This document shows positions 8,726 to 59,951 of a stretch of DNA of 64,000 bases, piece after piece; position 1 is the stretch's first letter, and each line of letters starts with the position of its first letter. The position numbers and the translations under genes were made by a program. The notes beneath the pieces are model-generated. The model was not told the DNA's origin. It did no database searches and saw only the letters and a list, made by a program, of their open reading frames with translations. The stretch lies in the IMG/VR virus record IMGVR_UViG_3300047160_035999, positions 5,059 through 69,058 of that record, one strand, 5' to 3'. This DNA comes from a virus.

Positions 8726-8735
8726 GAAACTCTCC

Positions 8736-38251: not shown

Positions 38252-39220
38252 ATGACTGGTGGTGGTTTTCAGACGGCGGTCACCGTTCAGCCGGCAATCG
38301 GCGTCGAAGGTGACTTTGCCAGTGCCAATCCGCGCTTTTCCGTGATCGCCGGCGCCGGCGCCTTCGTCTGCGGCGCTGCCGGCGTGCGCGTCGGCCGCTT
38401 TGCCTGGGCGAGCATGGCCGCGGTCGACGACGTCGGCGGTCCCGCGATCGTCAATAACTTCGGCTCCGGGCCCGTGACGGGCTTCGTGCACCGCGAGCAG
38501 CAGGGCCTGATCACCCAGTACCTGCAGAACGCGAGCATGCTGGTACCGGCCGGCTTCGGCATCACGTTGATGAACGGCGGTGACTTCGTCGTGCGCAATG
38601 CCGGATCGGGCCAGGCGCTGATCAATCAGAAGGCCTATGCCATCTTCGCGGACGGCTCGGTGCGCTTCGGCGCGACCGGGTCTCCGGATTCGGGTGGCAC
38701 CTCGACCGCCTCGACGATCGCGGCCGGCACCAGCTCGTTCACCGGCTCCATCACCGGCAACCTCATGACGGTGACCGCGGTCGGCAGCGGCACGCTCTAC
38801 AACGGCACCCAGATCTCCGGCACGAACGTCGCATCCGGCTCGGCCATCGTGTCTCAGGTCCTCCCGCTGCTGGCCGGCGAAGCGCTCCGCGGCATCGGGC
38901 GCTACAATGTGAACATTCCGGAGCAGTCGGCCGCCTCCACCACGATCAGCGGAACCTACGGCCTGCTGACGATCGGCGGTACGGTGGGCGGCACCTTCGG
39001 CATCGGCCAGCCGGTCTCCGGCGGCGGCACGTCGGCTGGTACGGTCATCACCGACCTCGGCACCGGCACCGGCGGCGCCGGAACCTACATCGTCAACAAT
39101 ACCCAGACGGTGGGATCGGGCGCGCTCAACACCGCGCTCGACGTCGAGACCAAGTGGTACGCGATGAGCCCGGGTCTTGCCGGCGAGCTCGTCAAGATCA
39201 GCGATCACCCGCTCGGCTGA
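38252..39220 (+). CDS. Head decoration/cement protein with two inserted beta-rich modules
   Basis: FQT.V..QPA.GVEGDFAS.NP; directly before the major capsid gene. Confidence 0.7.
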   Translation: MTGGGFQTAVTVQPAIGVEGDFASANPRFSVIAGAGAFVCGAAGVRVGRFAWASMAAVDDVGGPAIVNNFGSGPVTGFVHREQQGLITQYLQNASMLVPAGFGITLMNGGDFVVRNAGSGQALINQKAYAIFADGSVRFGATGSPDSGGTSTASTIAAGTSSFTGSITGNLMTVTAVGSGTLYNGTQISGTNVASGSAIVSQVLPLLAGEALRGIGRYNVNIPEQSAASTTISGTYGLLTIGGTVGGTFGIGQPVSGGGTSAGTVITDLGTGTGGAGTYIVNNTQTVGSGALNTALDVETKWYAMSPGLAGELVKISDHPLG

Positions 39221-39293
39221 TAGCTGATCGGCCCTCACCTCCTCCAACCAAGTCGAAACTGAGCCGAGCCCTTCTCGGCCGAAGGAGCATCAT

Positions 39294-40391
39294 ATGTACG
39301 GTTCTCTCCAGGAAGCGATGGATGCATTCGCGCGCGAGAAGGCGTTCTTCGCGGACCGCGGCATCTCCCTGCCCGACACGGTGCGCTGCTACGCGACCGA
39401 CGAGCTGAAGCGCAACTATCTCGCGATGGATGCGCAGCCGGCGCTGCAGACCGATCCAAACACCGGCATCCCGTCGTGGCTGTCGACTTTCATCGATCCG
39501 GATGTCTACAACATCCTGTTCGCGCCGACCGAGGCTGCCGAGATCGTCGGCGAGGAGCGCAAGGGCAACTGGACGACGACGACGGCCATGTTCCCGACCG
39601 TCGAGCATACGGTCGAGGTGTCGACCTATGGCGACTTCAACGAGAACGGCCGCGCCTCGGTGAACACCAACTGGCCCCAGCGCCAGTCGTACAACTTCCA
39701 GGTCATGATGGAGTACGGCGATCGCGAGATCGAGATGGCGGGCCTCGGCCGGGTGAACTGGATCAGCTCGCTCGATGCCGCGGCGGCCGACGGTCTCAAC
39801 CGCTTCCAGAACCTGTCCTACTTTTACGGCGTCTCCGGCCTCCAGTGCTTCGGTCTCTTCAACGATCCGAACCTCGGCGCGCCGCTGTCGCCGGCGCCGA
39901 AGGCCAACGGCGGGACTGCCTGGTTCACGGCGGACGGTCATCCCAACGCGACGGCGAACGAGGTATACAACGACATCGTCGCGCTGTACGAGAACATCGT
40001 GAACAACAACCTCGGCCTCGTGAACAAGAAGTCGCCGATGGTGCTGGGGCTGTCGCCGGGATCCGAAGTCGCCCTCACCTTCACGAACTCGTTCAACGTG
40101 AACGTCGAGGACCTGCTGAAGAAGAACTTCCCGAACCTGCGCATCCAGACCGCCGTCCAATATGGCGCGCAGACGCCGGCCAATCCGCAAGGTGTGCCCG
40201 CCGGCAACTTCATGCAGCTGATCGTGGAGAAGATCAAAGGCCAGAAGACCGCCTATTGCGCCTTCACCGAGAAGCTCAAGGCATTCCCGATCATCCGCGC
40301 CGCCTCCTCGTTCAAGCAGAAGAAGATGGGTGGCACGTTCGGCGCCATCATCCGCATGCCGGTGGCGTTCTCCTCGATGCTCGGCATCTAG
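39294..40391 (+). CDS. Major capsid protein, DUF2184 family
   Basis: KG.W.......P.VE..G..STYGD...G....N.N.P.RQSY; N..YF.GV.GL..FG..NDP. Confidence 0.88.
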   Translation: MYGSLQEAMDAFAREKAFFADRGISLPDTVRCYATDELKRNYLAMDAQPALQTDPNTGIPSWLSTFIDPDVYNILFAPTEAAEIVGEERKGNWTTTTAMFPTVEHTVEVSTYGDFNENGRASVNTNWPQRQSYNFQVMMEYGDREIEMAGLGRVNWISSLDAAAADGLNRFQNLSYFYGVSGLQCFGLFNDPNLGAPLSPAPKANGGTAWFTADGHPNATANEVYNDIVALYENIVNNNLGLVNKKSPMVLGLSPGSEVALTFTNSFNVNVEDLLKKNFPNLRIQTAVQYGAQTPANPQGVPAGNFMQLIVEKIKGQKTAYCAFTEKLKAFPIIRAASSFKQKKMGGTFGAIIRMPVAFSSMLGI

Positions 40392-40439
40392 CGCCGGGCA
40401 TCCCACCTCTTTTCCCAAAACCAGCCAGGAGTTCCTGAA

Positions 40440-40955
40440 ATGTCAGATGCCGCCCCGGCGGGGACCAATGTCGGTTCCCGCGTCGTGACTGTTGCCTGCA
40501 AGCTGCCGCACGGCATCAAGATCAGGGATCACCGGAAGTCCACCACGCACGAACCGGTCATGGGCGGCGGCTCGCGCAAGGTGGAAGTGTTCCGGCCTGT
40601 CGGGCCTACCTACCGCATCAAGGGCCAGAACGTGCCCGAGGCACTTAAGCCGTTTGTCGAAGTTGTCGGAGGGTATGCGATCACGCAGGGCATGCCGGCC
40701 GAGATCTTCGAGCGCTGGATGCGCTGGAACGAGGAAGCGCCCTACGTCAAGAACAACCTGATCTTCGGGTCGGAGAACGCCGATGAGGTCCGCGGCAAGG
40801 CGCGCGAGTTCGCCGCGCTCACGACCGGAATGGAAGCGCTTGACACCAGGATGAAGATGAACGCCGAGGGCCGCATGGAATTCGTCGACCAGCGGATCAA
40901 GGAAGCCGGCCTCAGCCAGATTGTCGATGGCAAGCTCGAGCTCAGCCTGACCTGA
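40440..40955 (+). CDS. Hypothetical virion-region protein
   Basis: VTVACKLPHG motif typical of this phage group; follows the capsid gene. Confidence 0.65.
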   Translation: MSDAAPAGTNVGSRVVTVACKLPHGIKIRDHRKSTTHEPVMGGGSRKVEVFRPVGPTYRIKGQNVPEALKPFVEVVGGYAITQGMPAEIFERWMRWNEEAPYVKNNLIFGSENADEVRGKAREFAALTTGMEALDTRMKMNAEGRMEFVDQRIKEAGLSQIVDGKLELSLT

Positions 40956-40977
40956 ACGTCATCGAGAGGATCGATCC

Positions 40978-41418
40978 ATGGGCGTGGTTGTCCAGTTCAA
41001 CTACGCTCAATGGGCTGCGATCTATCCGGAGTTCAACAACACGGTCAGCGCGCCACAGGCGCAAGAATATTTTCAGCTTGCGACTTCGGTCCATCGCAAC
41101 GACGGCGGCGGACCGGTGAACGACGCCGATCAGCAGCTTGCGTTGCTCAACATGCTGACGGCGCACGTCGCCGCGCTGATGGCGCCGGCGACCGCCGGCG
41201 GCCAGGCAAGCAGCATCGTCGGGCGCATTAGCGGCGCGGCCGAAGGTTCGGTGTCGGTCCAGACGGCCTATTCGAACAACGTCTCCCAGCAGATGGCCTG
41301 GTTCATCCAGACCAAATACGGCGCGATGTATTGGACGGCGACCGCGCCGTTCCGGACCATGCGCTACCTCCCGAACAGGAATCGAGGCGTCGTCGGCCCG
41401 CCGGGCTTCGGCGTCTGA
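40978..41418 (+). CDS. DUF4054 head-tail connector
   Basis: F....W...YPEF; LL..LTAHV..L; GR...A.EGSVSV; W..QT.YG..YW. Confidence 0.85.
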   Translation: MGVVVQFNYAQWAAIYPEFNNTVSAPQAQEYFQLATSVHRNDGGGPVNDADQQLALLNMLTAHVAALMAPATAGGQASSIVGRISGAAEGSVSVQTAYSNNVSQQMAWFIQTKYGAMYWTATAPFRTMRYLPNRNRGVVGPPGFGV

Positions 41419-41435
41419 AGCAGCAGGAGTAGACA

Positions 41436-41945
41436 ATGGACGTCGACGCAATCGGCAAACATGTGAGCGGCCTTTTGGCTTTCAAGAAGCGGGTTGAGGC
41501 GATCATCGACGCCGCCGAGGGCGGCGAGACGACCGCCGCGGAAGCACTGAGCGGCCGGATCGACGAGCTTAGCAGGAAGGTCGGCGACCTCGACGTGCGC
41601 GTGACGTCAAAGCTCGAGCAGGTCCTTGGTGACATCGAGGAGAAGCTGGCCGGTGTTGCCCTTATGCTCACCTGGTTCGAGGAGAATCGCGCGGCGCTCG
41701 ATGTGGTCCTGTCGATGGGCGACGATCTCGCCACGACGATCAGCGACGGCGCCGCGCAGGAGGAAAAGCCGGCCGTCGTGACCATCACCGCCCAGGCGCC
41801 GGAAGGCTCGGCGGAGGCCTCGGTCAACGAGACCGTCAATCCCCCGCTGCCAGAGGGCGTGAGCGCCACGACGGAGCCTGTCGCAGTACCGGACGCAGTA
41901 TCCGTGACCACACCGGCCCCCGAGGCCGAAACGCCGGCGATCTGA
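41436..41945 (+). CDS. Hypothetical acidic/coiled-coil protein
   Basis: RBS AGGAG; TGATG-coupled to the next gene. Confidence 0.6.
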   Translation: MDVDAIGKHVSGLLAFKKRVEAIIDAAEGGETTAAEALSGRIDELSRKVGDLDVRVTSKLEQVLGDIEEKLAGVALMLTWFEENRAALDVVLSMGDDLATTISDGAAQEEKPAVVTITAQAPEGSAEASVNETVNPPLPEGVSATTEPVAVPDAVSVTTPAPEAETPAI

Positions 41946-42388
41946 TGGCCTCGATCCGCGGCGGCGACCGCCTGGCCATGGCCCTGAGCAAGATTGCGCA
42001 GGGCCTGTCTAACGGCGGCATGCTGCGGGTCGGATTCCTGGAAGGCGCCACGGGCCCGGACGGCGATCCGATCGCGCTTCGCGCGGCCATGAACGAGTTC
42101 GGAACGCGGCACATCCCGGCCCGCCCCTTCTTCCGCAATATGGTCGAGGAGAAGAGCCCGGAGTGGCCGGAGGGCATCGCCACCCAGCTGAAGGCCAACG
42201 ATTTCGACGCCGGCCGCGCGCTCGAGGTCACCGGCCACGCCATCAAGAGCCAGATCCAGCAGTCCATCAAGGACACCAATTCCCCGCCGCTAGCGCCGTC
42301 CACGGTGAAGCGGAAAGGCTTCGACAAGCCGCTGATCGAAACCGGCGACATGATCAACGCCGTCGATTTCGAGGTCAAATCCGACTAG
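41945..42388 (+). CDS. Neck/tail completion protein
   Basis: LRVGFL; EFGT..IPARPFFR; PPLA.ST..RKG..KPLI.TG.M. Confidence 0.8.
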   Translation: MASIRGGDRLAMALSKIAQGLSNGGMLRVGFLEGATGPDGDPIALRAAMNEFGTRHIPARPFFRNMVEEKSPEWPEGIATQLKANDFDAGRALEVTGHAIKSQIQQSIKDTNSPPLAPSTVKRKGFDKPLIETGDMINAVDFEVKSD

Positions 42389-42407
42389 ACCAAAAGGACC
42401 CCTGCCC

Positions 42408-42929
42408 ATGCGATTCAAACCCAAAGCGTCCGTCATCGCGGCCGCCCTGCTTGCCTCGTCGGTTGCGGCCCTTGCGGCGAATACCACCTTCTTCACGTCG
42501 ATCGGCGATCTGGTTTTCCCCTTCAAGGCGCCCACCGCAAGCGCTCCCGGCACGATCGACAACATGACGATCGGCGCGACCACGCCCGAGGCCGGAAGCT
42601 TCAGCCAGGTCCAGATCGACCAGGGCACCAAGACAGCGACCGCCTCCTCCGGTGCCGCGACGCTCAACAAGGACGCCGGCGTCATCACGTCGGAATCGCT
42701 GAGCACCGCCGCAGGCGCGACCTATACGCTCACCCTCACCGATTCCTCGATCGCTGCGGCCGACCAGGTCATGGCAAGCGTCGCGCTGGGCACGGCGACG
42801 ACCGGAACGCCGGCGATCACGACGGTGAAACCTGCTGCCGGCTCGGTGGTGATCGTGGTGCAGAACATCCATGCCTCCGCGGCGCTCAACGGCACCATCA
42901 AGATCGCGTTCGTCGTTTTCAAGAACTGA
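42408..42929 (+). CDS. Fibre-like protein with N-terminal signal peptide
   Basis: MRFKPKASVIAAALLASSVAALA-A; IDNMTIGATTPEAGSF motif; Thr/Ala/Ser-rich beta domain. Confidence 0.6.
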   Translation: MRFKPKASVIAAALLASSVAALAANTTFFTSIGDLVFPFKAPTASAPGTIDNMTIGATTPEAGSFSQVQIDQGTKTATASSGAATLNKDAGVITSESLSTAAGATYTLTLTDSSIAAADQVMASVALGTATTGTPAITTVKPAAGSVVIVVQNIHASAALNGTIKIAFVVFKN

Positions 42930-42932
42930 ACC

Positions 42933-43310
42933 ATGAACCTGCGCGGGATTGCGAACGGGGTGACCAGCTCGGTCAACCCGAACGTCCCGCTCGTGGTTCA
43001 GATCTCAACCGGATACACGACGGCCGCGAACGGCCAGCGTTCGCCGAGCTACGCCGCTCCGGTGACCGTGCAGGGACAGGTCCAGGCGCTATCGAACAAA
43101 GAGATCCAGCACCTCGACGCCCTCAACATCCAGGATGCGCGCAACGCCATCTACGTCAACGGCCAGCTGAACGGCTTGGTGCGCGAAGAGAACATGGGCG
43201 GAGACCTGATCACCGATCCTGCGGGCAATGTCTGGCTTGTCGCGATCGTCCTCGAAAACTGGCCGGACTGGTGCAAGGTCGCGGTGGTCCGCCAGAACCC
43301 GCAGAGCTGA
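42933..43310 (+). CDS. Head-tail adaptor/stopper
   Basis: MNL..IA.......NP; QVQAL...LQH.D.LN.Q; W.V..V.E.WPDW. Confidence 0.75.
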   Translation: MNLRGIANGVTSSVNPNVPLVVQISTGYTTAANGQRSPSYAAPVTVQGQVQALSNKEIQHLDALNIQDARNAIYVNGQLNGLVREENMGGDLITDPAGNVWLVAIVLENWPDWCKVAVVRQNPQS

Positions 43311-43323
43311 ATGGAGACGACGA

Positions 43324-43668
43324 ATGCTGCGAGGACTTGCGCTTGCCCTCATCGCCGCCTCGATCCCCATGCAGGCCTGCGCCGATAGCGGCATCCGGCG
43401 CGTGGCGTGCGGCTATCAGCAGATCACCTCGCTGTCCTCGGCGCAGAAGCTGACGGTGCCGACCACATGTGGCGGACCGCCGACGCTCGCCGTCATCACC
43501 GCCGAGGCCCAGGCAGTCCGATATCGAGACGACGGAACGTCGCCGACTGCCACCGTCGGGATGCCGCTCGCGACCGGGGTCGCGCTGTCATATGAAGGCA
43601 CGCTGTCCGCCATCCAGTTCATCGAGCAGACTGCCAGCGCCAAACTGAACGTGCTGTTCTACCGGTAG
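43324..43668 (+). CDS. Hypothetical protein with signal peptide
   Basis: MLRGLALALIAASIPMQACA-D; beta-rich mature part. Confidence 0.6.
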   Translation: MLRGLALALIAASIPMQACADSGIRRVACGYQQITSLSSAQKLTVPTTCGGPPTLAVITAEAQAVRYRDDGTSPTATVGMPLATGVALSYEGTLSAIQFIEQTASAKLNVLFYR

Positions 43669-43680
43669 AGCGCGCAGCAA

Positions 43681-44244
43681 ATGCCCTTGTCGGTGTCGCC
43701 GTCGCAATCCGACATCCAGACGGCGCTGCGCGCCTTCCTGCTCTCGATCCTCCCCAGCGGCACCGAAGTGATCGAAGGCCTCGACAATCGGGTGCCGGAG
43801 CCCAAGAAGGCCAATTTCGTCACGATGACGGTTTTGCGCCGGCCGCGCCTCGCGACCAATCTCGACACCTTGAACGATACCGGCGACCAGACCGCGGTGA
43901 CACAATCCACCGAGGTCGTCTTTCAGCTCGACGTCCACAGCGACAACCTGCTCACCGCATCCGACAACGCGCAGCTTATCGCGACCCTGTTCCGCGACGA
44001 TTACGCGACGGACTTCTTCGACGACTATCCCGGCATTACTCCGCTCTATGCCGATGATCCGCGGCTCATTCCGTTCGTCAACGCCGAGAACCAATACGAG
44101 CCTCGATATGCCGTTGAGGCACGATTGCAGGCAGACCAGGTCGTCACCGTGCCGGCGCAGTCGGCCGACAGCCTCTCGCTCGACATCACCAACGTCGAGA
44201 CGGACCCTGCGTCATGGCCGAACTCCACCGTAACCGTACCTTGA
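43681..44244 (+). CDS. Neck/tail terminator protein
   Basis: VI.G.DNRV.EP...FV.M; QLDVH; PLYA.DP...PF.N.E.QYE.R. Confidence 0.75.
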   Translation: MPLSVSPSQSDIQTALRAFLLSILPSGTEVIEGLDNRVPEPKKANFVTMTVLRRPRLATNLDTLNDTGDQTAVTQSTEVVFQLDVHSDNLLTASDNAQLIATLFRDDYATDFFDDYPGITPLYADDPRLIPFVNAENQYEPRYAVEARLQADQVVTVPAQSADSLSLDITNVETDPASWPNSTVTVP

Positions 44245-44269
44245 TGCCATCGATCCGAGGTCACCGCCT

Positions 44270-46045
44270 ATGAGCACGATTCCTGCCGGCCTCTTCGTGT
44301 CGGTCAATCCGAGCGTTCTCGCCGCCGGCGGGTCGGCACTCGACCTGAACGGGCTGATCCTGACGACCAGCACGCGGGTGCCGATCGGGACCGTCATGTC
44401 CTTTCCGGACGGCGAGACGGTGGCCGAGTTCTTCGGCACGACCTCGAAGGAAGCGCAGATCGCTTCCGGCGGACCGGGCCTCGGCTCCGGATACTTCGGC
44501 GGATTCGACACCGCGACGGTGACGCCCGCCGCGATCCTGTTTGCGCAATACCCGATTGCGGCGGTCGCCGCGTACCTGCGCGGCGGCAACGTCTCGGGGC
44601 TGTCGTTGACCCAGCTGCAGGGATTCAACGGCCAGTTGTCGGCCACGATCGACGGCAACGCGCATACCGCCTCGATCAATCTTAGCGGTGTGACATCCTT
44701 CACGAACGCCGCCCAACTGATCGAAACAGACCTCGCCATTTCCGGCGTGCAGCAAGGCACGGTCACGGCCACGATCGCCGCCAATGTCATGACTGTCTCG
44801 GCGGTGCTGACCGGCGGCGCGCCGCTGGCGGTCGGAGACAAGGTCACAGGCACCGGCGTCACCGCCGCCTCGTTCATCTCCTCGTTCGGCACCGGCACGG
44901 GCGGCGCCGGCACGTACAACCTGACGCAGTCCTCGACGGTCGGATCGCCGACCACGGTGACCTCGTTTGCCCCGGCCGTGAGCTATGACAGCGTCTCCGG
45001 CGGATTCGTCATCGCGTCAGGGACGACGGGGAACGCCTCGACCATGGCGTTTGCGAGCGGTGCACTGGCGGTCGACCTGATGCTCACGCAGGCCACCGGC
45101 GCCGTGCTTTCGCAGGGCGCGGATGCTGCGACCCCCGGCGCCTTCATGGATGGCATGAAGCAGGTCACCCAGAACTGGGCATCATTCATGACCGGGTTCG
45201 ATCCCGACCAGGGATCTGGGATTACGCAGAAGCTCGCCTTCGCATCCTGGGCCAACGCTCAGAAGAACCGATTCGTCTACATTGCATGGGACACCGCCGC
45301 GGCCGCTGCAACGCAGGTGCCGGCAACGGCGACCCTTGGTTACGCGATATCGCAGGCCAACTATTCAGCGACATGCCTCGTCTGGGAGGTCGGAAACACG
45401 AACCTCGCCGCGATGGTGTGCGGCTTCATCGCATCGGTAAATTTCTCGCAGGCCGGCGGGCGCGTATCCTTTGCCTTCAAGAAGCAGAGCGGCATGACGG
45501 CCTCGGTGACCACCGAGGCCGCGGCCGTAAACCTCGGCGGCAACCCGCAGGTGCCGGGTGACCGCGGGAACGGCTATAACTATTATGGTGCGGTCGCCAC
45601 CGCGAACCAGGCGTTCATCGACTTCCAGCGCGGCATGGTGTCGGGTCCGTTCCAGTGGCTTGACACGCTGATCGACCAGATTTGGCTGACCAATGCCCTT
45701 CAGCTGGCGCTGATGAACCTCCTCGAGCAGACGAACGCGATCCCGTTCAACGCCGCGGGCGATGCCTTGATCGAGGCAGCGCTTGCCGACCCCATCCAGG
45801 CTGCCCTGTCGTTCGGCGCGATCGCCACCGGGATCACGCTATCTTCGGCGCAGATCGCGGCCGTCAATGCCGCGGCCGGAGGCAAGAACATCGCCGACAT
45901 CATCTCCACGCAGGGATGGTACCTGCTGCTGCCAGCCGTCTCGCCGTCAATCCGGCAGGCGCGCGGACCGAGATCCATCACGTTTTTCTACGTCGATGGC
46001 GAGAGCGTGCAGAGCATCAGCTTGAGCAGCACCACCATCCTCTGA
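44270..46045 (+). CDS. Tail sheath protein, DUF3383 family
   Basis: TIP....V.V.PSVL.AGG; NW..F.T.F; G.N.YG..ATA; F.W.D....QIWL. Confidence 0.88.
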   Translation: MSTIPAGLFVSVNPSVLAAGGSALDLNGLILTTSTRVPIGTVMSFPDGETVAEFFGTTSKEAQIASGGPGLGSGYFGGFDTATVTPAAILFAQYPIAAVAAYLRGGNVSGLSLTQLQGFNGQLSATIDGNAHTASINLSGVTSFTNAAQLIETDLAISGVQQGTVTATIAANVMTVSAVLTGGAPLAVGDKVTGTGVTAASFISSFGTGTGGAGTYNLTQSSTVGSPTTVTSFAPAVSYDSVSGGFVIASGTTGNASTMAFASGALAVDLMLTQATGAVLSQGADAATPGAFMDGMKQVTQNWASFMTGFDPDQGSGITQKLAFASWANAQKNRFVYIAWDTAAAAATQVPATATLGYAISQANYSATCLVWEVGNTNLAAMVCGFIASVNFSQAGGRVSFAFKKQSGMTASVTTEAAAVNLGGNPQVPGDRGNGYNYYGAVATANQAFIDFQRGMVSGPFQWLDTLIDQIWLTNALQLALMNLLEQTNAIPFNAAGDALIEAALADPIQAALSFGAIATGITLSSAQIAAVNAAAGGKNIADIISTQGWYLLLPAVSPSIRQARGPRSITFFYVDGESVQSISLSSTTIL

Positions 46046-46073
46046 GCACCGTTCGAAGAAGGATATCGAGATC

Positions 46074-46505
46074 ATGCCGAGCCTGACCGCAGCGAACGCA
46101 GTGATCACGCTGACGATCCCCGGCGTGTTCAACCGGCCTCAGCAGCTTCAGCAATTCGGCGTCGACGACGTCGCCGACGTCGATACGCTGACGATCGCCG
46201 AGACGGCCATGGGGGTCGACGGCACCCTGTCCGGCGGCTACGTCTTCAATGCGGTCAAGTATATCTACACCTTGCAGGCCAACTCCCCGTCGAACTTCAT
46301 CTTCGACCAATGGAAGGCCGCGCAGGACGCCCAGCAGGATACGTTCGCAGCCAACGGTCTCCTGACGCTGAAGAGCCTCGGCACGAAATGGACTTGGACC
46401 AACGGTTTCCTCACCGAGTACAAGCCGGCGCCCGAAATCAAGAAGATCCTGCAGCCGCGCAAATTCCAGATCACCTGGGAGCGCGTCGCGCCGCAGCCGA
46501 CGTAG
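46074..46505 (+). CDS. Tail tube protein (DUF3277-like)
   Basis: LT.ANAVI.L...G.F..P..LQ.F..DD; MGVDG.LSGG; TLQANSPS. Confidence 0.82.
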   Translation: MPSLTAANAVITLTIPGVFNRPQQLQQFGVDDVADVDTLTIAETAMGVDGTLSGGYVFNAVKYIYTLQANSPSNFIFDQWKAAQDAQQDTFAANGLLTLKSLGTKWTWTNGFLTEYKPAPEIKKILQPRKFQITWERVAPQPT

Positions 46506-46512
46506 GCTCATC

Positions 46513-47147
46513 ATGTCGATCAAGACGAAGATCATCACCATCGAGGCGGCCGCCGATGGCGCGCGCGAGAACCGTGACGCCGGGAAGACCTATCTCCTCA
46601 CCGAGATGCCGGCGCTGAAGGCCGAGCGCTGGGGACGGCACGCGGTTGCCGCGTGCAGCCGCAACGACCTGGACGTCAAGGGCGAGCTCGCCAAGCTAGG
46701 CCTCCTCGGCTTCTATCTCGTCGGATTTCAGGCGCTTGCCGGCGGCGACATCCAGGCCGTGGACGATCTGATGGACGAGATGCTGTCCTGCATCAAAATC
46801 GTCGAATCGCCGACGCTGGCGCGGCCGCTGGGCGGAGACGACGATATCGAGGAAGTCTCCACACTGATCCGGCTGCGGAAGGAGCTGATCGAACTCCACA
46901 TGGGTTTTACTTTCGGAGAGCTCGCTCAGATGTTGTTGGCGGCCTCTCCGAGCCCGACGGGCTAGCCGAGTACCCGAACGTCACCAACCTGATCGGCGGG
47001 GTGATCGGCGCCTTTGGTGGCGGGATGATGCGCGATATGGCGACGGTGCTGTCGATCGAAGATTGCTATGATCTTCTCGAGATCGCCGCGGTGGATGCTC
47101 ACAACAGGCGCGTGCTGAGAAAGCGGGAGGAGACGAATGCTCGTTGA
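46513..47147 (+). CDS. Tail assembly chaperone G (46513-46965) with probable -1 frameshift extension GT (to 47147)
   Basis: RD.GK.Y...EM; slippery G GGT TTT at 46902-46908; open -1 frame encodes LSIEDCYDLLEI..VD.HN. Confidence 0.75.
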
Positions 47148-48555: not shown

Positions 48556-48556
48556 A

Positions 48557-49234: not shown

Positions 49235-49542
49235 TGCAGATCATCCCGTTGCAGGCGGTCCCGAACCAGACGCTGACGGTGGTGCTCGGAAACCAGAATT
49301 GCCGCATCAATGTCTACCAGAAGTTCTTCGGCCTCTTCGTCGACCTCTCGATCGGATCGACGCCGATCGTGCGCGGCATCATCGCGCAGCAGGCAAACCG
49401 CATCGTCCGATATGCCTATCTTGGATTTGTTGGTGATCTTGCCTTCTTCGACACGCAAGGGACGTCTGACCCGGTCTACACGGGCCTGGGCTCGCGATAC
49501 CAGCTAGTCTATCTCGAGGCGGCAGACCTGGTGACGGGCTGA
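49234..49542 (+). CDS. Baseplate protein
   Basis: IPLQA.PNQ.L...L..Q.C; F.G.L.F.DT.G..DP.Y.GLG.RY.L.Y. Confidence 0.75.
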   Translation: MQIIPLQAVPNQTLTVVLGNQNCRINVYQKFFGLFVDLSIGSTPIVRGIIAQQANRIVRYAYLGFVGDLAFFDTQGTSDPVYTGLGSRYQLVYLEAADLVTG

Positions 49543-50435
49543 TGGCGCTCGTCAGCCGGAAGCTTCGCGCCACGATCACGCTGGCCCCGATCGAGGGGCA
49601 GGCGCAGACGTTCGCAAATAGCGGCGGGGCCGACACCGTCATCATCGAGAACCTGCGGATGTCGGCCGAGGTGCTGCACGCCGGCGGACCGTCGGACGGC
49701 ACGCTCGATCTGACCATCTACGGCCTGTCGCTGTCGACCATCAACCGGTTATCGACGCTCGGCATGCAGATCAACCTGGTGCCGAAGAATGCCATCGTCC
49801 TCGAGGCTGGCGACGATCAATCCGGCATGTCGACCGTCTTCACCGGATACATCCTGGCGGCCTTCGGCGACTTCAACGCCTCGCCAGATGTTTCCTTCCA
49901 CATCTCCGCTCATACGCTTGCCCCTCAAGCGGTGATCCCGGCGCAGGCATCGAGCTTCCAGGGCTCGGCCGATATCGCCACGATCATGAGCGGCCTTGCC
50001 ACGCAGCTCGGCCTGAAGTTCGAGAATTCCGGCGTCACCGGTACGCTCTCGAACGCATATTTCTCCGGATCGTTCAAGACGCAGGCGCAGGCCTGCGTGG
50101 ACGCGGCCGGCATCGCCTGGAATCACGGCGAAGGCGGCACGCTCGCGATCTGGCCGAAGAATGGCTCGCGCGGCGGCCTGGTGCCGCTGGTCTCGCCTCA
50201 GACCGGGATGAAGGGGTATCCGACCTATACGGCCTACGGCATCATGGTCGAGACGCTCTACAACCCGTCGATCGGCTTCGGCGGAAAGGTTCAGGTCCAG
50301 AGCAGCCTGCCCGCGGCCTGCGGCGAATGGACCGTCTACAGCCTCGGCCACCAGCTCGAGGCGGAGATGCCGGACGGCCGGTGGTTCTCGATTCTGCTCT
50401 GCTACAACCCGAAATTCCCAACGCCGGTGGCCTGA
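49542..50435 (+). CDS. Baseplate hub protein
   Basis: L.IYGL....N.L; LEAGD; TGM.GYP; V..L.NP.I..G. Confidence 0.8.
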   Translation: MALVSRKLRATITLAPIEGQAQTFANSGGADTVIIENLRMSAEVLHAGGPSDGTLDLTIYGLSLSTINRLSTLGMQINLVPKNAIVLEAGDDQSGMSTVFTGYILAAFGDFNASPDVSFHISAHTLAPQAVIPAQASSFQGSADIATIMSGLATQLGLKFENSGVTGTLSNAYFSGSFKTQAQACVDAAGIAWNHGEGGTLAIWPKNGSRGGLVPLVSPQTGMKGYPTYTAYGIMVETLYNPSIGFGGKVQVQSSLPAACGEWTVYSLGHQLEAEMPDGRWFSILLCYNPKFPTPVA

Positions 50436-50438
50436 CGC

Positions 50439-51146
50439 ATGGCGGATGACGCGACGAAGGGATATGGGCAACAGGACCCGTCCGATTCCGCCGGCGCCTT
50501 CAATCCGTTCGCCTTCCAGATCGCACAGGCGCTTGCGCGCATCTCGACGAACAAGATCGTGAAGGTGATGGCCGTCGACACCGACAAGAAGACGGTCGAC
50601 GTCCAGATCGCAGTCAACCAGCTCGACGGTCAGCTCAATTCGACACCGCACGGGACGATCTACGGCATCCCCTATGTGTGGGCCATGGGCGGCACGAACG
50701 CTTTCATGATCGATCCGGCCGTGGGTGACATGGGGATGATGTCGGTGTGCGACCGCGACATCTCCGCGGTCAAGAGTACTCAGGATATTGGCAATCCGGG
50801 ATCCTTGCGGAAATTCAGCCCCTCAGACGGAATCTACCTGTTCGGCATTCCGGGCCTCAACGGGACCGCTCCCGTGCAGTGGATCAAGTGGACGAGCGAC
50901 GGCATCGACATCACGGCCAACAACGGCAACCGCCTGACGTCGGATGCCTCAGGCTGGAAATTCACCGGCGTCGTGAATTTCGCGAACGACGTGCAGCTGG
51001 GTGGCCAGATCCTCGGGGGTGCCGGCGGCGAGCTCGCGGTCGACATCAAGACGACCGGCGATGTCGTTGCCGGCACGATCAGCCTGAAGGGCCATCACCA
51101 CACCGCACAAGGCGCAACGGCGCCGACGACGCCGGCGCAAGCATGA
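50439..51146 (+). CDS. Baseplate spike (Gp138-like)
   Basis: VDV..AVNQ.DG; P.VGD.G....CDRDIS.VK; terminal ISLKGHHH (HxH metal tip). Confidence 0.82.
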   Translation: MADDATKGYGQQDPSDSAGAFNPFAFQIAQALARISTNKIVKVMAVDTDKKTVDVQIAVNQLDGQLNSTPHGTIYGIPYVWAMGGTNAFMIDPAVGDMGMMSVCDRDISAVKSTQDIGNPGSLRKFSPSDGIYLFGIPGLNGTAPVQWIKWTSDGIDITANNGNRLTSDASGWKFTGVVNFANDVQLGGQILGGAGGELAVDIKTTGDVVAGTISLKGHHHTAQGATAPTTPAQA

Positions 51147-51508
51147 AGACGATGTTCCTCAACCCACAGACGTGGGACCTCGCCATCGACGCTTCTGGAA
51201 ACATCGCTGCCGCACAAGATCCCTATGCGCTCGCGCAGAACGCCGCGAGCGCCATCCGGCTGTTCCTCGGCGAGCAATGGTACAACACGACGCTGGGCGT
51301 GCCGTACCTCACGGCGAACGGGCGCAGCCAGATCCTCGCCAGACCGGTCAACGTGCCCCTGATGAAGGCAACGCTGGCGGCTGTGGCTGAAACGGTGACG
51401 GGTGTTTCAACGGCGCAGGTGTTCATCACGTCTATCGCGGACCGCAACGTCCGCGGCCAGGTGCAGGTGACGGACGAGAACGGGACGACAACGGCGGCGC
51501 TGTTCTGA
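51143..51508 (+). CDS. Baseplate wedge protein (gp25/gp46-like)
   Basis: WDL..DA.GNIA; AQ..ASA.RLF.GE.WYNT..GVPY. Confidence 0.75.
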   Translation: MKTMFLNPQTWDLAIDASGNIAAAQDPYALAQNAASAIRLFLGEQWYNTTLGVPYLTANGRSQILARPVNVPLMKATLAAVAETVTGVSTAQVFITSIADRNVRGQVQVTDENGTTTAALF

Positions 51509-51509
51509 C

Positions 51510-52925
51510 ATGACAACGAATGTCCCCCCGATCGTATTCACCCCGCAAGGGCCGGTCGCGCCCACCGAGGCGCAGATCCTCGCCGGCGTGCAGGCCGACT
51601 ATGATGCGGCATTCGACGGCGGCCTCGATCCCTCATTGTCAACGCCGCAGGGGCAACTGGCGACCAGCACGTCCGCGATCGTCGGGAATGGGAACGACTC
51701 GTTCCTGTTCATGGCGAACATGTTCAATCCGGACTTCGCCCAGGATCGGTGGCAAGACGCCCTTGCTGCCATCTACTTTCTCCAGCGAAAACCGTCCGAA
51801 CCGACAGTCGTCCAAGCCGTCTGCACCGGCGGTCAGGGCGTACAGATCCCCGCCGGCGCGTTGGCCAAAGCCGTCGATGGCAATCTCTATAGCTGCACCG
51901 ATGGCGGCGTGATCGACAATACCGGAAGCATCACGCTGACGTTCGCCTGCAACGCCGTCGGCCCGATCCCCTGCCCGGCGAATACGCTGACCAAGATCGC
52001 GCGCGCCATTCCGGGCTGGGATAGCATCAACAATCCGGCCGACGGCACGCTCGGAAATAACACCGAGACCCGCGCCGAATTCGAGACGCGGCGAAAGGAA
52101 TCCGTCGCCAAGAACTCTCGCGGCACGATCCAGGCGGTCCAGGGCGAGGTGCTCGATGTTTCCGGCGTGCTAGATGCTTGGTCGGTACAGAACGACTCAA
52201 GCTCGCCGGCGGTGATCTCGGGCGTGACGCTCGCGAAAAACTCGATCTATGTCTCCGCCGTCGGAGGAGCCGACCAGGACGTCGCCAATGCGATCTGGTC
52301 GAAGAAGTCGCCGGGCTGTGGCTACAACGGCAACACGACGGTCACCGTCGTCGACGACAGCTCCGGATATTCGCCGCCGCTGCCATCGTATCAGGTGACG
52401 TTCGAGCGGCCGACCTCGCTCGCCATCTTGTTCGCGGTCGTGATCGCCAACAGCCTGCAGGTGCCCTCCGATGTCATCGCGCAGGTGCAGGCCGCCATCA
52501 TCGGAGCCTTTGCAGGGTCGGATGGAGGTGCGCGCGCCCGCATCGGATCGACGATCTATGCGAGCCGGTACTATCCGCCGATCGCGGCACTGGGATCGTG
52601 GGCCAACATCATCTCGGTTCTGGTCGGTTCCAACAACAATGCCGGCGCCGTATTCACCGGATCGATCTCGGGAACGGCGTTGTCCGTCTCGGCGACCGCA
52701 TCGGGCGCAGTCGCCATCGGGCAGACGATATCCGACGCGGCCGGTCTGATCACACCGGGCACGACGATCCTCAGTGGTAGCGGGACAAGCTGGACGATCA
52801 ATAACCCGCAGACGGTCGGAAGCCGCACGATCACCGGAGCGACGGCGAACCTGACCCTGACGATGGTTCACGGGGATCAAACGCCCACCATCAACGCCAA
52901 CAACATCGCCGTCGCGCTGACATGA
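51510..52925 (+). CDS. Baseplate J-like protein with an inserted beta module
   Basis: L.TPQGQLA; QDALA.IYF..R; G...ET...FE.RR; KKSPGC..NG. Confidence 0.85.
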   Translation: MTTNVPPIVFTPQGPVAPTEAQILAGVQADYDAAFDGGLDPSLSTPQGQLATSTSAIVGNGNDSFLFMANMFNPDFAQDRWQDALAAIYFLQRKPSEPTVVQAVCTGGQGVQIPAGALAKAVDGNLYSCTDGGVIDNTGSITLTFACNAVGPIPCPANTLTKIARAIPGWDSINNPADGTLGNNTETRAEFETRRKESVAKNSRGTIQAVQGEVLDVSGVLDAWSVQNDSSSPAVISGVTLAKNSIYVSAVGGADQDVANAIWSKKSPGCGYNGNTTVTVVDDSSGYSPPLPSYQVTFERPTSLAILFAVVIANSLQVPSDVIAQVQAAIIGAFAGSDGGARARIGSTIYASRYYPPIAALGSWANIISVLVGSNNNAGAVFTGSISGTALSVSATASGAVAIGQTISDAAGLITPGTTILSGSGTSWTINNPQTVGSRTITGATANLTLTMVHGDQTPTINANNIAVALT

Positions 52926-53581
52926 GCGGCCCGGACATCAACAGGCCGAGGCCGGGATCGAACGGCATCGGCCAATTCATCATCGGCGTATCGCCGATCG
53001 GGACGATCATCCCGTTCGATTACTGGGACACGATCGCAAGCCAATTCGCCAACAGCGACACGATCACGACGCTCATTGGGAATATGGACGAGTACCTCGA
53101 CAAGACGGCCGCCCTCGACAACTTCTACGACTTCGTCTTCAACGTCGCGACCGCGCAGGGCTTTGGCCTCGATGACTGGGGCAAGATCGTCGTGGTGAGC
53201 CGCGTCCTCGACGTACCGACCGGGGGTGACTACTTCGGATACAAGGAAGCCCTCCCCGGCTCAAATCCGTTCAACACGCAGTCGTTCTTCTCGGGCCAGC
53301 AGCTGACGAACAACTTCATCCTGTCCGACAGCGCCTATCGCGTTCTGATCTATGCGAAGGCTCTCGCCAATATCTGCGACGGGTCGATCCCGGCGATGAA
53401 CCAGATCCTGCTGCGGCTCTTTCCGGGCCGCGGCAACTGCTTCGTGAAGGACGGCCTCGACATGTCGATGGCCTATCACTTCGACTTCGCGCTGACGCCG
53501 GTCGAGCTTGCGATCGTCGAGCAGTCCGGAGCCCTGCCCCATCCGACCGGAGTGTCGGTCGCCGTGACCGTGCTCGTCTAG
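52922..53581 (+). CDS. DUF2612 baseplate protein
   Basis: QFANS..I..L; TA.GFGLD.WG.IV.VSR; L.D.AYR.LI..KA.ANI; LP.P.GV. Confidence 0.85.
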   Translation: MSGPDINRPRPGSNGIGQFIIGVSPIGTIIPFDYWDTIASQFANSDTITTLIGNMDEYLDKTAALDNFYDFVFNVATAQGFGLDDWGKIVVVSRVLDVPTGGDYFGYKEALPGSNPFNTQSFFSGQQLTNNFILSDSAYRVLIYAKALANICDGSIPAMNQILLRLFPGRGNCFVKDGLDMSMAYHFDFALTPVELAIVEQSGALPHPTGVSVAVTVLV

Positions 53582-53593
53582 GAAAGCCAAACA

Positions 53594-54658
53594 ATGCAGG
53601 GCTCGCAAGTTCCGCTCCGGATGCAGGTGATCTGGGGCAAGAATGCCGGCGGAGCTTATATCCGGGTCGTTCCGGTCGCATCGCAAATCGGCACCCAGGA
53701 TGGCGCGGCGTCCTTCACCGACGGATTTCCGCCCGACAACTTCACGAACGTGTCCGCTGGCGGCGTGCCTCCGTTCGGCCAAGACATGAACGGAATCCTG
53801 AGCGTCGTCACCGCATGGCTGCAGTGGGCTCAGGCGGGAGGCCCCAACGTCTACGATGCGGCGTTTGCAACGGCGGTGGGCGGCTATCCCTTCGGAAGCA
53901 TCCTCAACTCGGCCTACACGGCCGGCGCCATGTGGGCGAGCTTCCAGGACAACAACCTGACGAATCCGGATGATCCGTCGACGTCCGCGGGCTGGGTGCG
54001 TGTCGGCCTTCAACCAGGTACGCCCGTTCCGCTTCTCACGGCCAACACCAACAGCCAGTTCATTCTCGCCAACGGGACGACTGTCGGAAACACGGGCTCC
54101 GGAGCGGCGCAAGCCGATCGCGGCTACGTGTACGTCTACAAGGCAATCTGGGATCAATTTTCGAATACCCAGTGCCCGATCTTCGATTCGTCCGGAAACC
54201 CGTCGACCCGCGGCGCGAATGCCGTCGCTGATTTCCTCGCGCTGAAGCGCCTAACGACCCCGAACATGAAGGGGCTCGGTGTCATCGGTGTGGACACGAT
54301 GGCAGGATCGGCCTCGACGTTCCTCAACGGCGTGCCGATCACAATCGGCAACACCACGACTCCCGGTTCGATTCTCGGCGAGAACCTGCATGCTCTGACC
54401 TCGAGTGAGAATGGAGCACACACTCACGTCAACACGCTGACCGACCCGCAGCACAATCACTCCTACCTCATTGCGCCCGACAGCGGCGCCCGCGTTTCCG
54501 GAACGGGAAACATCTATTTGGGCGGCCCGCAATCGAGCGGTGCGACGACGGGGAGCTCGAGCACCAATATCACCATCAACAATGCGTCGTCAGGAAGCGG
54601 CACCGGCCACAACACCGTTGAGCGCAACATGGCTGTCTACTGGGGGCTGAAAACATGA
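53594..54658 (+). CDS. Tail fibre protein (baseplate-proximal)
   Basis: GA.S..DGFPP......GG.PP.G.D.NGIL; F.TA.GGYP.G.IL; C-terminal HxH collar-like motifs. Confidence 0.8.
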   Translation: MQGSQVPLRMQVIWGKNAGGAYIRVVPVASQIGTQDGAASFTDGFPPDNFTNVSAGGVPPFGQDMNGILSVVTAWLQWAQAGGPNVYDAAFATAVGGYPFGSILNSAYTAGAMWASFQDNNLTNPDDPSTSAGWVRVGLQPGTPVPLLTANTNSQFILANGTTVGNTGSGAAQADRGYVYVYKAIWDQFSNTQCPIFDSSGNPSTRGANAVADFLALKRLTTPNMKGLGVIGVDTMAGSASTFLNGVPITIGNTTTPGSILGENLHALTSSENGAHTHVNTLTDPQHNHSYLIAPDSGARVSGTGNIYLGGPQSSGATTGSSSTNITINNASSGSGTGHNTVERNMAVYWGLKT

Positions 54659-55299
54659 CGACCCGCATTGCCAGGTCGGCCATACGAGATCCTGATGCAT
54701 TTGCGGTGGAAGTGGCTGCCTTCGCGCATGAGCACCGAAACTGGACCGCGCATATGGAGCGCGTCAAGCACGACGAAGATCGCGGCGTCACAGGAATCGA
54801 GCGGCATGCGCCCTATCCTCGCCCGCTCCACCATCAGCTGGTGATGGACGCCGTCAACGAGCATGGCCAGCCGGACTATGAAATATTCGACGACGGACCC
54901 TCTGCTTCGCAGGTGCTGCAGTCGAAAAAGACCGGCCTGCTGGCAGAGGTCAGCTGCGCCGAGGCCGCGGCGATCGCGGCCCTCGTGCCAGCGGGCAAGC
55001 GCCGCCTGCTCAACATGCGCGCGCAGAAAATCCGGGAAGACGATCGCGATCGTTACGCCAAGGCCGCCGAGGCGCGAAGCGGGCTTCTGACAAAACTGAT
55101 GATCACTTCGATCGATCCGGCTGATCTCGCCGCGGACGTCGAGGCGATGCGCCCCGCTGCCGACACGGCGTTCCTGAAAGAGCAGGACGAGATCAAGCGC
55201 AAGATCGATGCGATCGAGCAGAGCGCTGCGCAAGCCATGCACGACATCGAGGACCTCACGATCGACACCATCGATCGCTGGACGATGCCCGAATTCTGA
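54655..55299 (+). CDS. Tail fibre-associated protein (chaperone-like)
   Basis: ATGA-coupled after the fibre gene; helical. Confidence 0.55.
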
Positions 55300-55307
55300 A
55301 GGACACC

Positions 55308-58300
55308 ATGACCCTGTTGAAGTCGACAGCACTCGCCGTCGCGGCGTGGGCGCTCGCGTGCCCGGCCGTGGCCATGGCGCAGAGCACCCCTAACCTGACC
55401 TATGGACAGGTGCCGACCGCAGGTCAGTGGAATTCCTACTTTGCCGCAAAGCAGGACGTGCTGGGATACGTTCCCTTCAACGCCGCCGGCGGCACGTTCA
55501 CCGGGCGCGTGGTGATGGCGGCCGCCGGTGCATCGGTTGCGGGCCTCAACATCACGCCCGGCTCGACGCCCTCCAGCCCGGCACCTGGCGACCTGTGGGT
55601 GACCGACGCGGGGTTCTTCGGCTATGCCAACGGCGTTACGTCGCCGTTTGGACTGACACCGCCGAAGCCGATCTCGGGGTTCAGCTATCAGTATTCCGCG
55701 GCCGACAACGGATACATCGTCCAGCGCTCCAATGGCGGCCTTTCGATGGTCGACATCTTGCGCGGCGACACCATCCTACCGAGCGGCGCCGTCTTCACGG
55801 TGAAGAACGACGACGTCGCCGGCCAGCTTGCGCTTTCGATATCGAACGGCGTTGTCACCGGATCCATTTCCGGAACGACGTTTACCGCCGCGTCGGGGCT
55901 GGTCGGCACCCTTGCGCCCGGGCAAACCATCGGAGGGGCAGGCTCCGGTGTCCTCGCCGGCACCACGATCGTATCCCAGCTGACCGGAACGCCGGGCGGC
56001 CTCGGGACCTATCAGGTGTCGCTCAGCCAGACGGTTGCCTCGACGAGCCTCACATTCGGCGCAACGCTGAACGGTGATCTGAACAACTATGTTCCGATCG
56101 GTCCTGGTCAGAGCGCGAGTTTCGCGTCCGACGGCGTGAACTATCGCTCGATCGGCGCTCCGCTGCGCTCCAAGTCGATCTCGACGCCATTGGGCAGCGT
56201 CACGGGATCGATCTCGGGAACGACGCTCACGGCTTCGTCTGCCCTTGCAGGCACCCTGTCACCCGGTCAGATGATCGGCAATGCCGGGTCGACTATTGCG
56301 CTGGGCACGAAGATCGTGTCGCAGCTGACCGGCACCACCGGCGGGACCGGTACGTATCAGGTCAGCATCAGCCAGACGGTTGGCTCCGGCACCATCTACT
56401 TCGGCTTCCCGACGACGCTCTTTTTCGCCGCGAGCGGCGGGTTGGACGTAAACTCGGGCGTGGACCCGTCTGTTCCGCTCGCGACGCCGCAAGGCGCGAT
56501 GAACACGCTCTCTCAGCGCTATGATCTCAGCGCCGGTTTCTTCGTCGTGCAGGCCTGCCAGACCGCCGGATCAACCTGCAACCCGCCGAGCTCGCCGCAA
56601 ACCTTCTCGGGATTCCTGGTCCGGGGCCGTCCTCTCGGCGTCGGCAACCCGCTCGGCGTGAATCCCTTCTATCACGCGATCCTCTTTCGCGGGGACCCTG
56701 CCAACACGGCGAATTACACGATCAGCGCGCCGGGCACCTGCGTGCAGGCAATTCAGTCGACGCTCATGGTCGACGGTTTCACGCTCACCTGTGGCGGCGA
56801 CGGCATCAGTGCGACGACCAATTCCATCGTCGGCGTCGGCAACATCGCCTACGGTGCCATGACTGGCAATGATATGTTCGCCGGCGCGTCGTCGTACATC
56901 CATTGGGACAACAACAGCACGAAAACCGGCGCTGCCTCGTGTCACCAGCTGGCTGCGACCGGAAGCACGATTGCTGCGAACGGTTCTGGACTTACCGAGA
57001 CCATGAGCAGTGCCGTCTGGGGCACCGGCAACTATTGCGTGAAGGAGGGAGGCACCGTCGACAATACCGGAGGCACTCAGTCCGGAACGGCGACCGGGCC
57101 AAAGTTCAACATCGGCATCGGCGGCGGATACATCGCGATTGGAACTTCTGGCGTCGATCCGAACACGCTGCTGGTCGGCAACTCGAACGGCACTTACGGT
57201 GCGACCGGGCCGGCGAACAATGTAGCCGGCCCCGGCACCTTCAACGGCCTCACGGTCTCCGGGTCGTTCAGTGCTCCCGGCCTCGTCGGCAATGCGAGCC
57301 TGACGAACGCGTCGATGACCATCAACGGCACGACCTGCACGCTGGGATCGAGCTGCAGCCCGTCCGCCGCCGCAACCTCGATCGCCAACGGCAGCACGCT
57401 GGTGACCGGCGGCACCGGGGGTCGTGTCCTGATGGACAACAGCGGCACGCTCGGCGAGTATGCGATCAGCGGCACCGGCAATGTCGCGATGACAACCAAC
57501 CCGGTGTTCACGACGCCGAACCTCGGCACGCCGTCGGCCGTCACCCTCACAAACGGCACAGGCCTGCCCACCACCGGCCTGACCGGCACGCTCCAGGCCG
57601 CGCAATTTCCGGCGCTCACCGGCGACATCACCACGACGGCTGGTGCTCTCGGCACCACGCTCGCGACCGTCAACTCGAATGTCGGCACGTTCGGCTCGGC
57701 GACCCAGTCGGGGACCTTCACCGTCAACGCCAAGGGCCTGATCACGGCAGCGGCCAATGTCACCATCACGCCGGCGGTCGGAAGCCTCACCGGCGCCGGC
57801 TCGGGCGTTCTGACCGCGCTCGGCATTGCCGTGGGCTCCGCCGGCGGGCCCGTCACCAATGGCGGCGCGCTCGGTTCGCCGTCGTCGATCGGCATGCTCC
57901 CCGCCTTCACGCTCGGCGGCACGATCTCCGGCGGCGGCAACCAGATCAACAACGTCATCATCGGCAACTCGACGCCGCTTGCCGGATCGTTCACAACAGC
58001 ATCGGCCAGCACCTCGATCACGAGCCCGATCCACTACGGCGGATCGAGCGCCGGTTCGACGCTTACGTTGCAGTCGACCTCGAGCGGCGCGCCGTCGGGC
58101 GACAAGATCCTTTTCAACGCGGGCGGCTCGACGCGCGGAACGATGCTGTCCGGCGGCAACCTCGGTTTTGGGACGGAGACCAACCCGCAGTTCCCCCTCG
58201 TTGTGAGCGCCAACACGACGACCGGCATCAACGTGTCGGGCTCCGGAAACATGGCGGTCTTCGTCAACGCCGACGGCCAACCGAGCAACTTCGCCGTCGT

Positions 58301-58802
58301 CACCTTCGCGAACAACTCAGGCAACAATCCAGGATTCATCACGTACCATGCGGAGGGCACGGCCCTCTCGCCGACGCAGTCAAAGGCGAACGACGTCACC
58401 GGATTCTTCGCGTCCAAGGCCTACAATAGCAGCCCGGGCTGGAACGGGACGCCGCAGGGCCTCGCGATCTTCGCCGGGCAGGACCAGACGTCGAGCGCGC
58501 AGGGCGGGTACGCCAAGATGCTGCTGACGCCGAACGGCTCGACCACGCGAGGCACGGTCATGCGCTGGCATGGCAGCGGCGGCGTATCGATCGTCAGCGA
58601 GAACGACCCCGGCGCCGGAGCGATGCTCCTGAAGCCGCAGACGTTCGCCAGCCTGACGACCTGCAGCGGCACGATCGAGGGCGCGATGGCGTCGGTGACG
58701 GACAGCACCGTCAACACCTGGGGCTCGACGATCGCGGGCTCGAGCACCAACCACGTCATGGCCTATTGCGACGGGACTAACTGGACGGTCGCAGCGAAGT
58801 AG
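55308..58802 (+). CDS. Large fibre/adhesin-like protein with N-terminal signal peptide
   Basis: [25 protein letters not shown]; Gly/Thr/Ser-rich; two beta modules, a beta-helix-like middle and fibre-shaft motifs. Confidence 0.75.
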
Positions 58803-59847: not shown

Positions 59848-59951
59848 GAGCGCTCCAACCGGCGGTCGGAGGTCATCTAACTCGGCAACTCGCCGGTGCG
59901 CAACTCCGGCGGGCATGACCATTCGTCGGGTAATTGAGCAGGAACAGCACC

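Follow-up and report, generated by a model that had tools for sequence, protein, structure and literature searches.

A predicted beta-barrel module added to four virion proteins of an E217-like provirus belongs to a widespread domain family without an entry in the profile databases searched

Can one small domain be built into the head, the tail, the baseplate and the fibres of the same phage and, if so, does it belong to the core of these proteins or is it an addition to them? The question is raised by a 64,000-nucleotide stretch of viral DNA (positions 5,059 to 69,058 of IMG/VR record IMGVR_UViG_3300047160_035999, a 69-kb provirus), hereafter the window, in which an initial annotation proposed that a single module was present six times in four different virion proteins. 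All six copies were found within ~15–30 nt of the positions first given for them. The aligned segments are ~70 aa long and share a motif that reads roughly TGSISGT.LTV.A...G.L..GQ.I.G.GV..GT.I....GTG.GG.GTY.V..SQTV.S. Two copies lie in the head decoration protein (38723–38944, aa 158–231, with a small insertion ahead of the Gly-rich loop, and 38921–39151, aa 224–300), one is inserted within the contractile tail sheath (44747–44977, aa 160–236), one stands near the C-terminus of the baseplate J-like protein (52638–52853, aa 377–448) and two are in a large fibre-like protein (copy 1, 55839–56072, aa 178–255; copy 2, 56184–56417, aa 293–370), all on the + strand. The four carrier genes translate cleanly.

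A hidden Markov model (HMM) built from the six copies recovered only those six from a six-frame translation of the whole window (next best E=0.29), and the complete 69-kb provirus record holds the same six and no others. Two observations would fit a similarity caused by composition only: half of the module consists of Gly, Thr and Ser (50% over 998 copies), and BLAST with low-complexity filtering finds almost nothing. However, profiles built with one protein left out scored the omitted copies at 32–47 bits, whereas 500 composition-matched shuffles per copy reached a maximum of 10 bits. The similarity is therefore not Gly/Thr/Ser bias, and the six stretches are copies of one real repeated domain.

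The module was modelled with AlphaFold2 using fibre copy 2 and an alignment of 150 sequences, comprising the best copy from each top match and the six window copies. The resulting model is all-beta, with a mean pLDDT of 96.8 and a pTM of 0.82, and its strand pattern recurs at residues 161–233 of a full-length AlphaFold2 model of the sheath (pLDDT 91.6). These models point, with moderate confidence for the fold class, to an independently folding domain that forms a closed six-stranded beta-barrel, and the initial view of a module distinct from Ig-like domains holds, no Ig fold being seen. The top structural neighbour is 8ECI in the PDB, the 124-aa cement protein from the capsid of Arthrobacter phage Bridgette (Foldseek E 0.048, TMq 0.68), which VIA-align superposed on the module over 62 residues, the root-mean-square deviation (rmsd) being 2.0, at 24% identity and Z 7.0, below the tool's caution line of Z 8, under which a match possibly reflects only a common arrangement. 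Weaker neighbours under the same line are domain II of translational GTPases (Z 5.8–6.3) and the E1 FCCH barrel (Z 5.9), and barrel domains of phage Dit, hub and tailspike proteins are also among them; with every Z below the caution line, we do not claim that any of these structures is homologous to the module.

Sequence profiles gave no name to the domain. Neither in the proteins of the window nor in ten matches rich in modules is the module covered by a Pfam or NCBIfam model, none of the 150 aligned copies has a consistent Pfam match at E<=1, and Big_6 is touched by only 4 of the 150 (E>=0.017). Profile searches of all PDB sequences returned noise only, an Atlas search by features gave leads all below 0.8 (Phage_tail_3, head fibre and E1_FCCH), and no relation to any carbohydrate-binding family was detectable. 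Judged by sequence, the family is uncatalogued in the profile databases searched. Its conserved positions are turn glycines, core Leu, Val and Ile, one Tyr (Tyr55) and one Gln (Gln61). Charged residues make up 3.2% of the 998 copies, compared with 10.7% elsewhere in these proteins, and 19% of the copies have no charged residue.

The relation of the module to its carriers is clearest from vB_E177, a cultured Burkholderia phage that shares 52% identity with the window in the sheath, 50% in J and 38% in the cement protein. The module was not found when 31 kb of this genome was scanned sensitively (best E 0.17), and the gaps in the three alignments coincide with the modules (sheath aa 152–234, J 395–469, cement 163–292), the vB_E177 cement and J homologues being 158 and 412 aa long. 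Likewise, phmmer aligned the window sheath with E217 gp31 in two blocks (29–189 to 28–185 and 243–556 to 167–467), so that the extra segment maps near gp31 residues 160–167. A sheath match was present in 182 GenBank phage records, and among the matches listed the query coverage was ~85%, mostly in two pieces. The module is not present in the solved structures of E217, Pa193 and XM1.

The cores themselves are readily recognised. The decoration, or minor capsid (cement), protein of the XM1 gp53 family (38252–39220, + strand, 322 aa; PF23982, phrog_2122) scores 77.1 bits against PF23982 on aa 7–169, above the gathering cut-off of 27, and is laid out as a core of ~aa 1–160, then the two modules, then a short C-terminal tail. 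The baseplate J-like wedge protein (51510–52925, + strand, 471 aa; PF04865, phrog_6) scores 57.5 bits against PF04865 on aa 83–351 (gathering cut-off 21.1) and has E217 gp44, Pa193 gp45-a and XM1 gp16 as relatives in the PDB; the Baseplate_J and gp53 Pfam profiles both stop before the module. The sheath (44270–46045, + strand, 591 aa; DUF3383/E217 gp31 family, PF11863) scores 353 bits against its family profile, above the gathering score, in two stretches with the module skipped. Its full-length model has the three-domain sheath fold: ~460 of the 504 residues of the Pa193 and E217 sheaths superpose on it, at Z 36. A literature search on DUF3383 yielded nothing relevant. The large fibre-like protein (55308–58802, + strand, 1164 aa), encoded downstream of the wedge genes, matched no Pfam family.

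The same cores are retained in relatives that lack the module, as alignment shows for E177 and alignment together with fold for E217 gp31, so that the extra nature of the module can be located; it is an accessory plug-in that follows or interrupts the conserved cores in the cement protein, the sheath, J and the fibre. The possibility that every DUF3383 and baseplate J protein has the segment in its core, or that only a shared Gly/Thr/Ser bias had been seen, is hardly tenable given the profiles that skip the module, the homologues of E217, Pa193, XM1 and E177 that lack it, the scores of the omitted copies, and a confident fold reproduced in the isolated module and in the full sheath model.

How far does the module extend beyond this phage? 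When 1.84 billion cluster representatives (clusters at 50% identity) were searched with the profile, it was detected in 7,544 clusters at E<=1e-3 and in 2,828 at E<=1e-10, and single giant proteins contained as many as 29 matched stretches. Carriers were recognised from precomputed Pfam labels, a shape search of the ESM Atlas (TM 0.90–0.94, rmsd 0.6–1.0) and BFVD. On the head they comprise gp53/Phage_cement proteins (PF23982/PF22758), lambda gpD-type decoration proteins (PF02924) and one HK97 capsid fusion; on the tail and neck, DUF3383 (PF11863) and Phage_sheath_1 (PF04984/PF17482) sheaths and neck terminators (PF23961). Further carriers are Baseplate_J (PF04865), sheath-initiator-like, SU10 adaptor-like and P22 gp10-like proteins, as well as beta-helix tailspikes and tail-collar, Stf-like and gpJ-like proteins. 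The module is also present in a GDSL lipase, and the carrier Pfam families further include PF10934, PF11134 and PF24175. Outside phages, the module occurs in bacterial proteins with a signal peptide, namely a PilY1 adhesin, RHS toxins and a Terriglobus secreted protein, and the named carriers come from the soil bacteria Bradyrhizobium, Paraburkholderia and Terriglobus. Since it recurs in many unrelated virion protein families, the module is a shuffled accessory, and the idea that it is shared across different virion proteins extends well past the four carriers first reported. In BFVD, two collagen-repeat proteins of Indivirus ILV1 also hold the barrel (A0A1V0SCQ2, 52% identity, TMq 0.84; A0A1V0SDM6, 30%, TMq 0.79), which suggests that the domain crosses between tailed phages and Nucleocytoviricota.

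Closer to the window, three related E217-like contigs carry the module on 3 or 4 virion proteins each, with 2–3 copies in the cement protein, one in the terminator, 1–3 in the sheath, one in J and one in the lipase, and two further, shorter viral loci carry it on 2 or 3 proteins, the sheath and neighbouring small open reading frames (ORFs). Among the 120 nearest sheath homologues, 100 have one copy, 18 have two and 2 have three. Among its head genes, a Paraburkholderia-associated relative (L011) has one for a GDSL lipase that contains the module (5228–6757), and a GIY-YIG/NUMOD3 homing-endonuclease-like gene (17852–18496) stands between its sheath and tube. In another relative (L010) an 810-aa neck terminator (6486–8918) is enlarged by fn3 domains and a single barrel module, so that this neck protein combines accessory domains of two kinds.

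Nucleotide-level searches were far less productive. No match was obtained by tblastn of single modules and of the C-terminal half of the decoration protein against 50,697 GenBank phage records, where the low-complexity filter probably hides a Gly/Thr-rich domain; these nulls are consequently weak evidence of rarity in cultured phages. The N-terminal 420 aa of the fibre matched only the metagenomic record MW202520.1 by tblastn (21070–21273), where a module copy lies under a "portal protein" annotation, and this gene is either mis-annotated or a carrier of an unusual kind. The 7.8-kb structural region had no megablast match among phages, and a single-copy search of genome contigs returned one short contig of a betaproteobacterial metagenome-assembled genome (MAG).

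The initial annotation had also pointed to DNA similarity between the head and sheath copies and had called the module mobile. The two 30-mers concerned (at 39059 and 44888) do agree at 27 of 30 bases. As a sign of recent movement, however, the resemblance did not hold up: where whole modules share a residue, they use the same codon as often as the codon usage of the phage predicts. The pair formed by decoration copy 2 and the sheath copy has a marginal excess (17 observed against 10.6 expected), and the fibre pair, 71% identical, agrees in synonymous codons at 21 positions against 21.2 expected. Across proteins, the modules of the window are 26–43% identical. Since codon identity matches the codon-usage expectation, the DNA resemblance is not good evidence of recent transfer and mostly reflects codon bias.

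Placed in a tree, 31 copies taken from the window and from five relatives group by carrier and position, not by genome. The window sheath copy joins the sheath copy of L007 (support 0.98), the J copy joins that of L009 (0.94), and decoration copy 1 pairs with its orthologue, decoration copy 1 of L009 (0.97, 67% identity). Decoration copy 2 groups with decoration copy 2 of L011 and copy 3 of L010 (0.96), and the two fibre copies pair together (0.96). With weaker support, sheath copy 1 of L009 groups with cement copies. Recent intragenomic spread, as read from the 30-nt match, was rejected, codon agreement being at expectation and the copies clustering by carrier. The insertions are thus older than the divergence of these phages, because the copies group by carrier and position and codon agreement is at expectation. 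Mobility stands in the sense of an accessory shuffled across carriers, whereas within this lineage the tree indicates that the modules are old and were inherited with their carriers. Copy number shifts by local tandem duplication, with at most occasional exchange between carriers.

What might such a barrel do on the particle? The middle domains of sheaths are peripheral. In XM1, cement trimers of the gp53 type stand on the capsid exterior and the sheath has an outward, lineage-specific insertion domain (XM1 paper), while E217 gp31 possesses a third domain, A, that is missing in pyocin sheaths. At the XM1/E217 stoichiometry of ~415 major capsid subunits, cement trimers at each three-fold and 108–204 sheath subunits, the virion would display roughly a thousand barrels over head, tail, baseplate and fibres. 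The barrel is added to proteins that form the outside of the particle and, on this analogy, would make up an outward-facing, passive decoration layer. Its charge-poor, Thr/Ser/Gly-rich surface could give weak multivalent contact with polysaccharide-rich surfaces such as the host envelope, capsule or exopolysaccharide, an adhesive role that would parallel the one proposed for Ig-like domains on other phages. We give a probability of about 0.6 to this reading of the module, as an autonomous, old accessory barrel that most likely serves passive decoration and weak polysaccharide contact; it is favoured because the module is present on fibres, tailspikes and bacterial adhesin-type proteins and because the Ig domains provide a precedent. 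A catalytic or assembly-essential function is not likely, and the high-avidity binding to exopolysaccharide, soil or plant surfaces that was first suggested is conjecture.

Several points weigh against a decoration layer that makes contacts. No binding partner is known or predicted for the module, and its conserved residues comprise a single aromatic (Tyr55) and otherwise glycines and core hydrophobics, unlike typical carbohydrate-binding modules. The outward orientation is argued from homologous structures and general knowledge of sheath middle domains. Moreover, all 120 of the nearest sheath homologues keep at least one copy, so that the module could be structurally integrated in this subclade. 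That retention would equally suit barrels that are inert structural beads, spacers or extra cement adding bulk, reach and lateral contacts without any external ligand, and so would conservation confined to glycines and core with no surface patch, a capsid cement protein as the top structural neighbour, and the tandem arrays of giant proteins, whose many matched stretches resemble stalk-building units. We nevertheless consider inert beads unlikely, since the carriers differ widely in assembly environment, including monomeric insertions in PilY1 and RHS proteins, since module-free relatives form infectious particles, and since a drift between one and three copies at one site is hard to square with a fixed lattice contact.

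The strong depletion of charge, the joint covering of head, tail and baseplate, and the soil bacteria among the named carriers would also fit a charge-free, hydroxyl-rich shield that lessens electrostatic sticking to soil minerals and debris or masks underlying proteins. This proposal is purely inferential, no precedent for it was found in the literature, and the domain is also on fibres and bacterial adhesin-type proteins, where sticking is expected; it strikes us as improbable. The preferred reading, a decoration layer with weak polysaccharide contact, can be widened into a more speculative form, which we offer tentatively and with more doubt than trust. Here the large charge-free barrel family would be a general coat domain of tailed phages, found also in giant-virus collagen-like, PilY1 and RHS proteins, which in a soil clade of temperate E217-like myophages would cover head, neck, sheath, baseplate and fibre. 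It would recognise one class of ligand, for example a polysaccharide backbone, and provide an avidity-based first contact distinct from that of the receptor-binding fibres.

The genes around the carriers are those of a contractile-tailed phage of the E217/Pa193/XM1 type, and include portal, Mu F-like, NUDIX-DUF2213, DUF4054 and neck terminator genes as well as an E217 gp32-like tube, an E217 gp41-like hub and a DUF2612 wedge. The NUDIX hydrolase-DUF2213 fusion (36140–38170, 676 aa, Pa193 gp24-like) lies just upstream of the cement and capsid genes and is shared with L009 and L011. The N-terminus of the fibre ORF (55308–55390) resembles a signal peptide, with a hydrophobic run ending AMA-QS followed by a motif typical of fibre N-termini; such a segment is unusual where assembly takes place in the cytoplasm, and it could be a baseplate anchor or result from a mis-set start. 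Directly after the fibre, on the – strand, stands an Acyl_transf_3 family gene (58777–59922, 91 bits), probably a surface-polysaccharide acyltransferase for lysogenic conversion, and vB_E177 has an acetyltransferase at the same place. No glycosyltransferase able to glycosylate the Thr/Ser-rich barrels was found near the virion genes, where the search gave only this opposite-strand gene.

Accessory domains on phage particles affect sticking, persistence and host finding, and Ig-like families dominate their discussion. The module described here adds a second, non-Ig accessory family of comparable spread, with thousands of clusters and at least a dozen carrier families. Since none of the profile databases searched recognises it, current phage annotation does not show it, and a named model would re-annotate many hypothetical stretches in sheaths, cement proteins, baseplates and fibres. 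Furthermore, a charge-free surface together with coverage of the whole particle offers a concrete, testable idea on the virion surface chemistry of soil phages.

Four known systems invite comparison. The Bridgette cement protein (8ECI) is the best structural neighbour and is likewise a protein of the capsid surface; unlike the module it is a free-standing dimer and not a plug-in, and it is not among the matches (E<=10) of the module profile to all PDB sequences. Domain II of the translational GTPases (EF-Tu, SelB, IF2 and eRF3) has a like barrel arrangement, with 67–70 residues aligned at an rmsd of ~2.5 within the weak Z range given above, and carries a G-x-hydrophobic-x-x-G strand motif that we take to be similar to that of the module. 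The identity, however, is 9–16%, and the likeness, which comes from an unrelated cellular setting, does not imply a shared function.

Another is the beta-barrel of E1_FCCH type found on the exterior of siphophage tail tubes (PF08813 with PF16190; NBD2 gp39 and MED16 gp13), described in a 2026 paper (PMC13576161). It is a six-stranded closed barrel, the class predicted for the module, is fused to a virion protein and faces outward. The module aligns with the E1 FCCH barrel 4p22_B over 65 residues (Z 5.9, rmsd 2.7), below the level trusted for a fold match, as are the many Uba1 rows in Foldseek (E 5–8). The module has no detectable sequence relation to PF16190, which matches 0 of the 150 copies. 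In the carrier P0169 the module array is directly followed by an E1_FCCH match below threshold, and hhalign of the module profile against this FCCH-like unit gave a probability of 0.2%, that is, no relation.

The closest analogue in behaviour is the set of Ig-like accessory domains (I-set, FN3 and Big_2), which Fraser and colleagues reportedly described in 2006 on Hoc, major tail, wedge and fibre proteins. Like them, the module is small and all-beta, is added to many diverse virion proteins, is missing from close homologues and is dispensable for the core fold. Its copy number varies, it occurs on bacterial surface proteins as well, and weak surface adhesion has been proposed for both. Unlike them, it is predicted to be a closed six-stranded barrel and not an Ig sandwich, has neither an Ig or fn3 fold nor a Pfam model, presents a nearly charge-free surface, and is found on the head, sheath, baseplate and fibre of one phage together. 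The module thus represents a real, widespread and uncatalogued domain family, which would act much as the Ig-like accessory domains do but stands outside their families.

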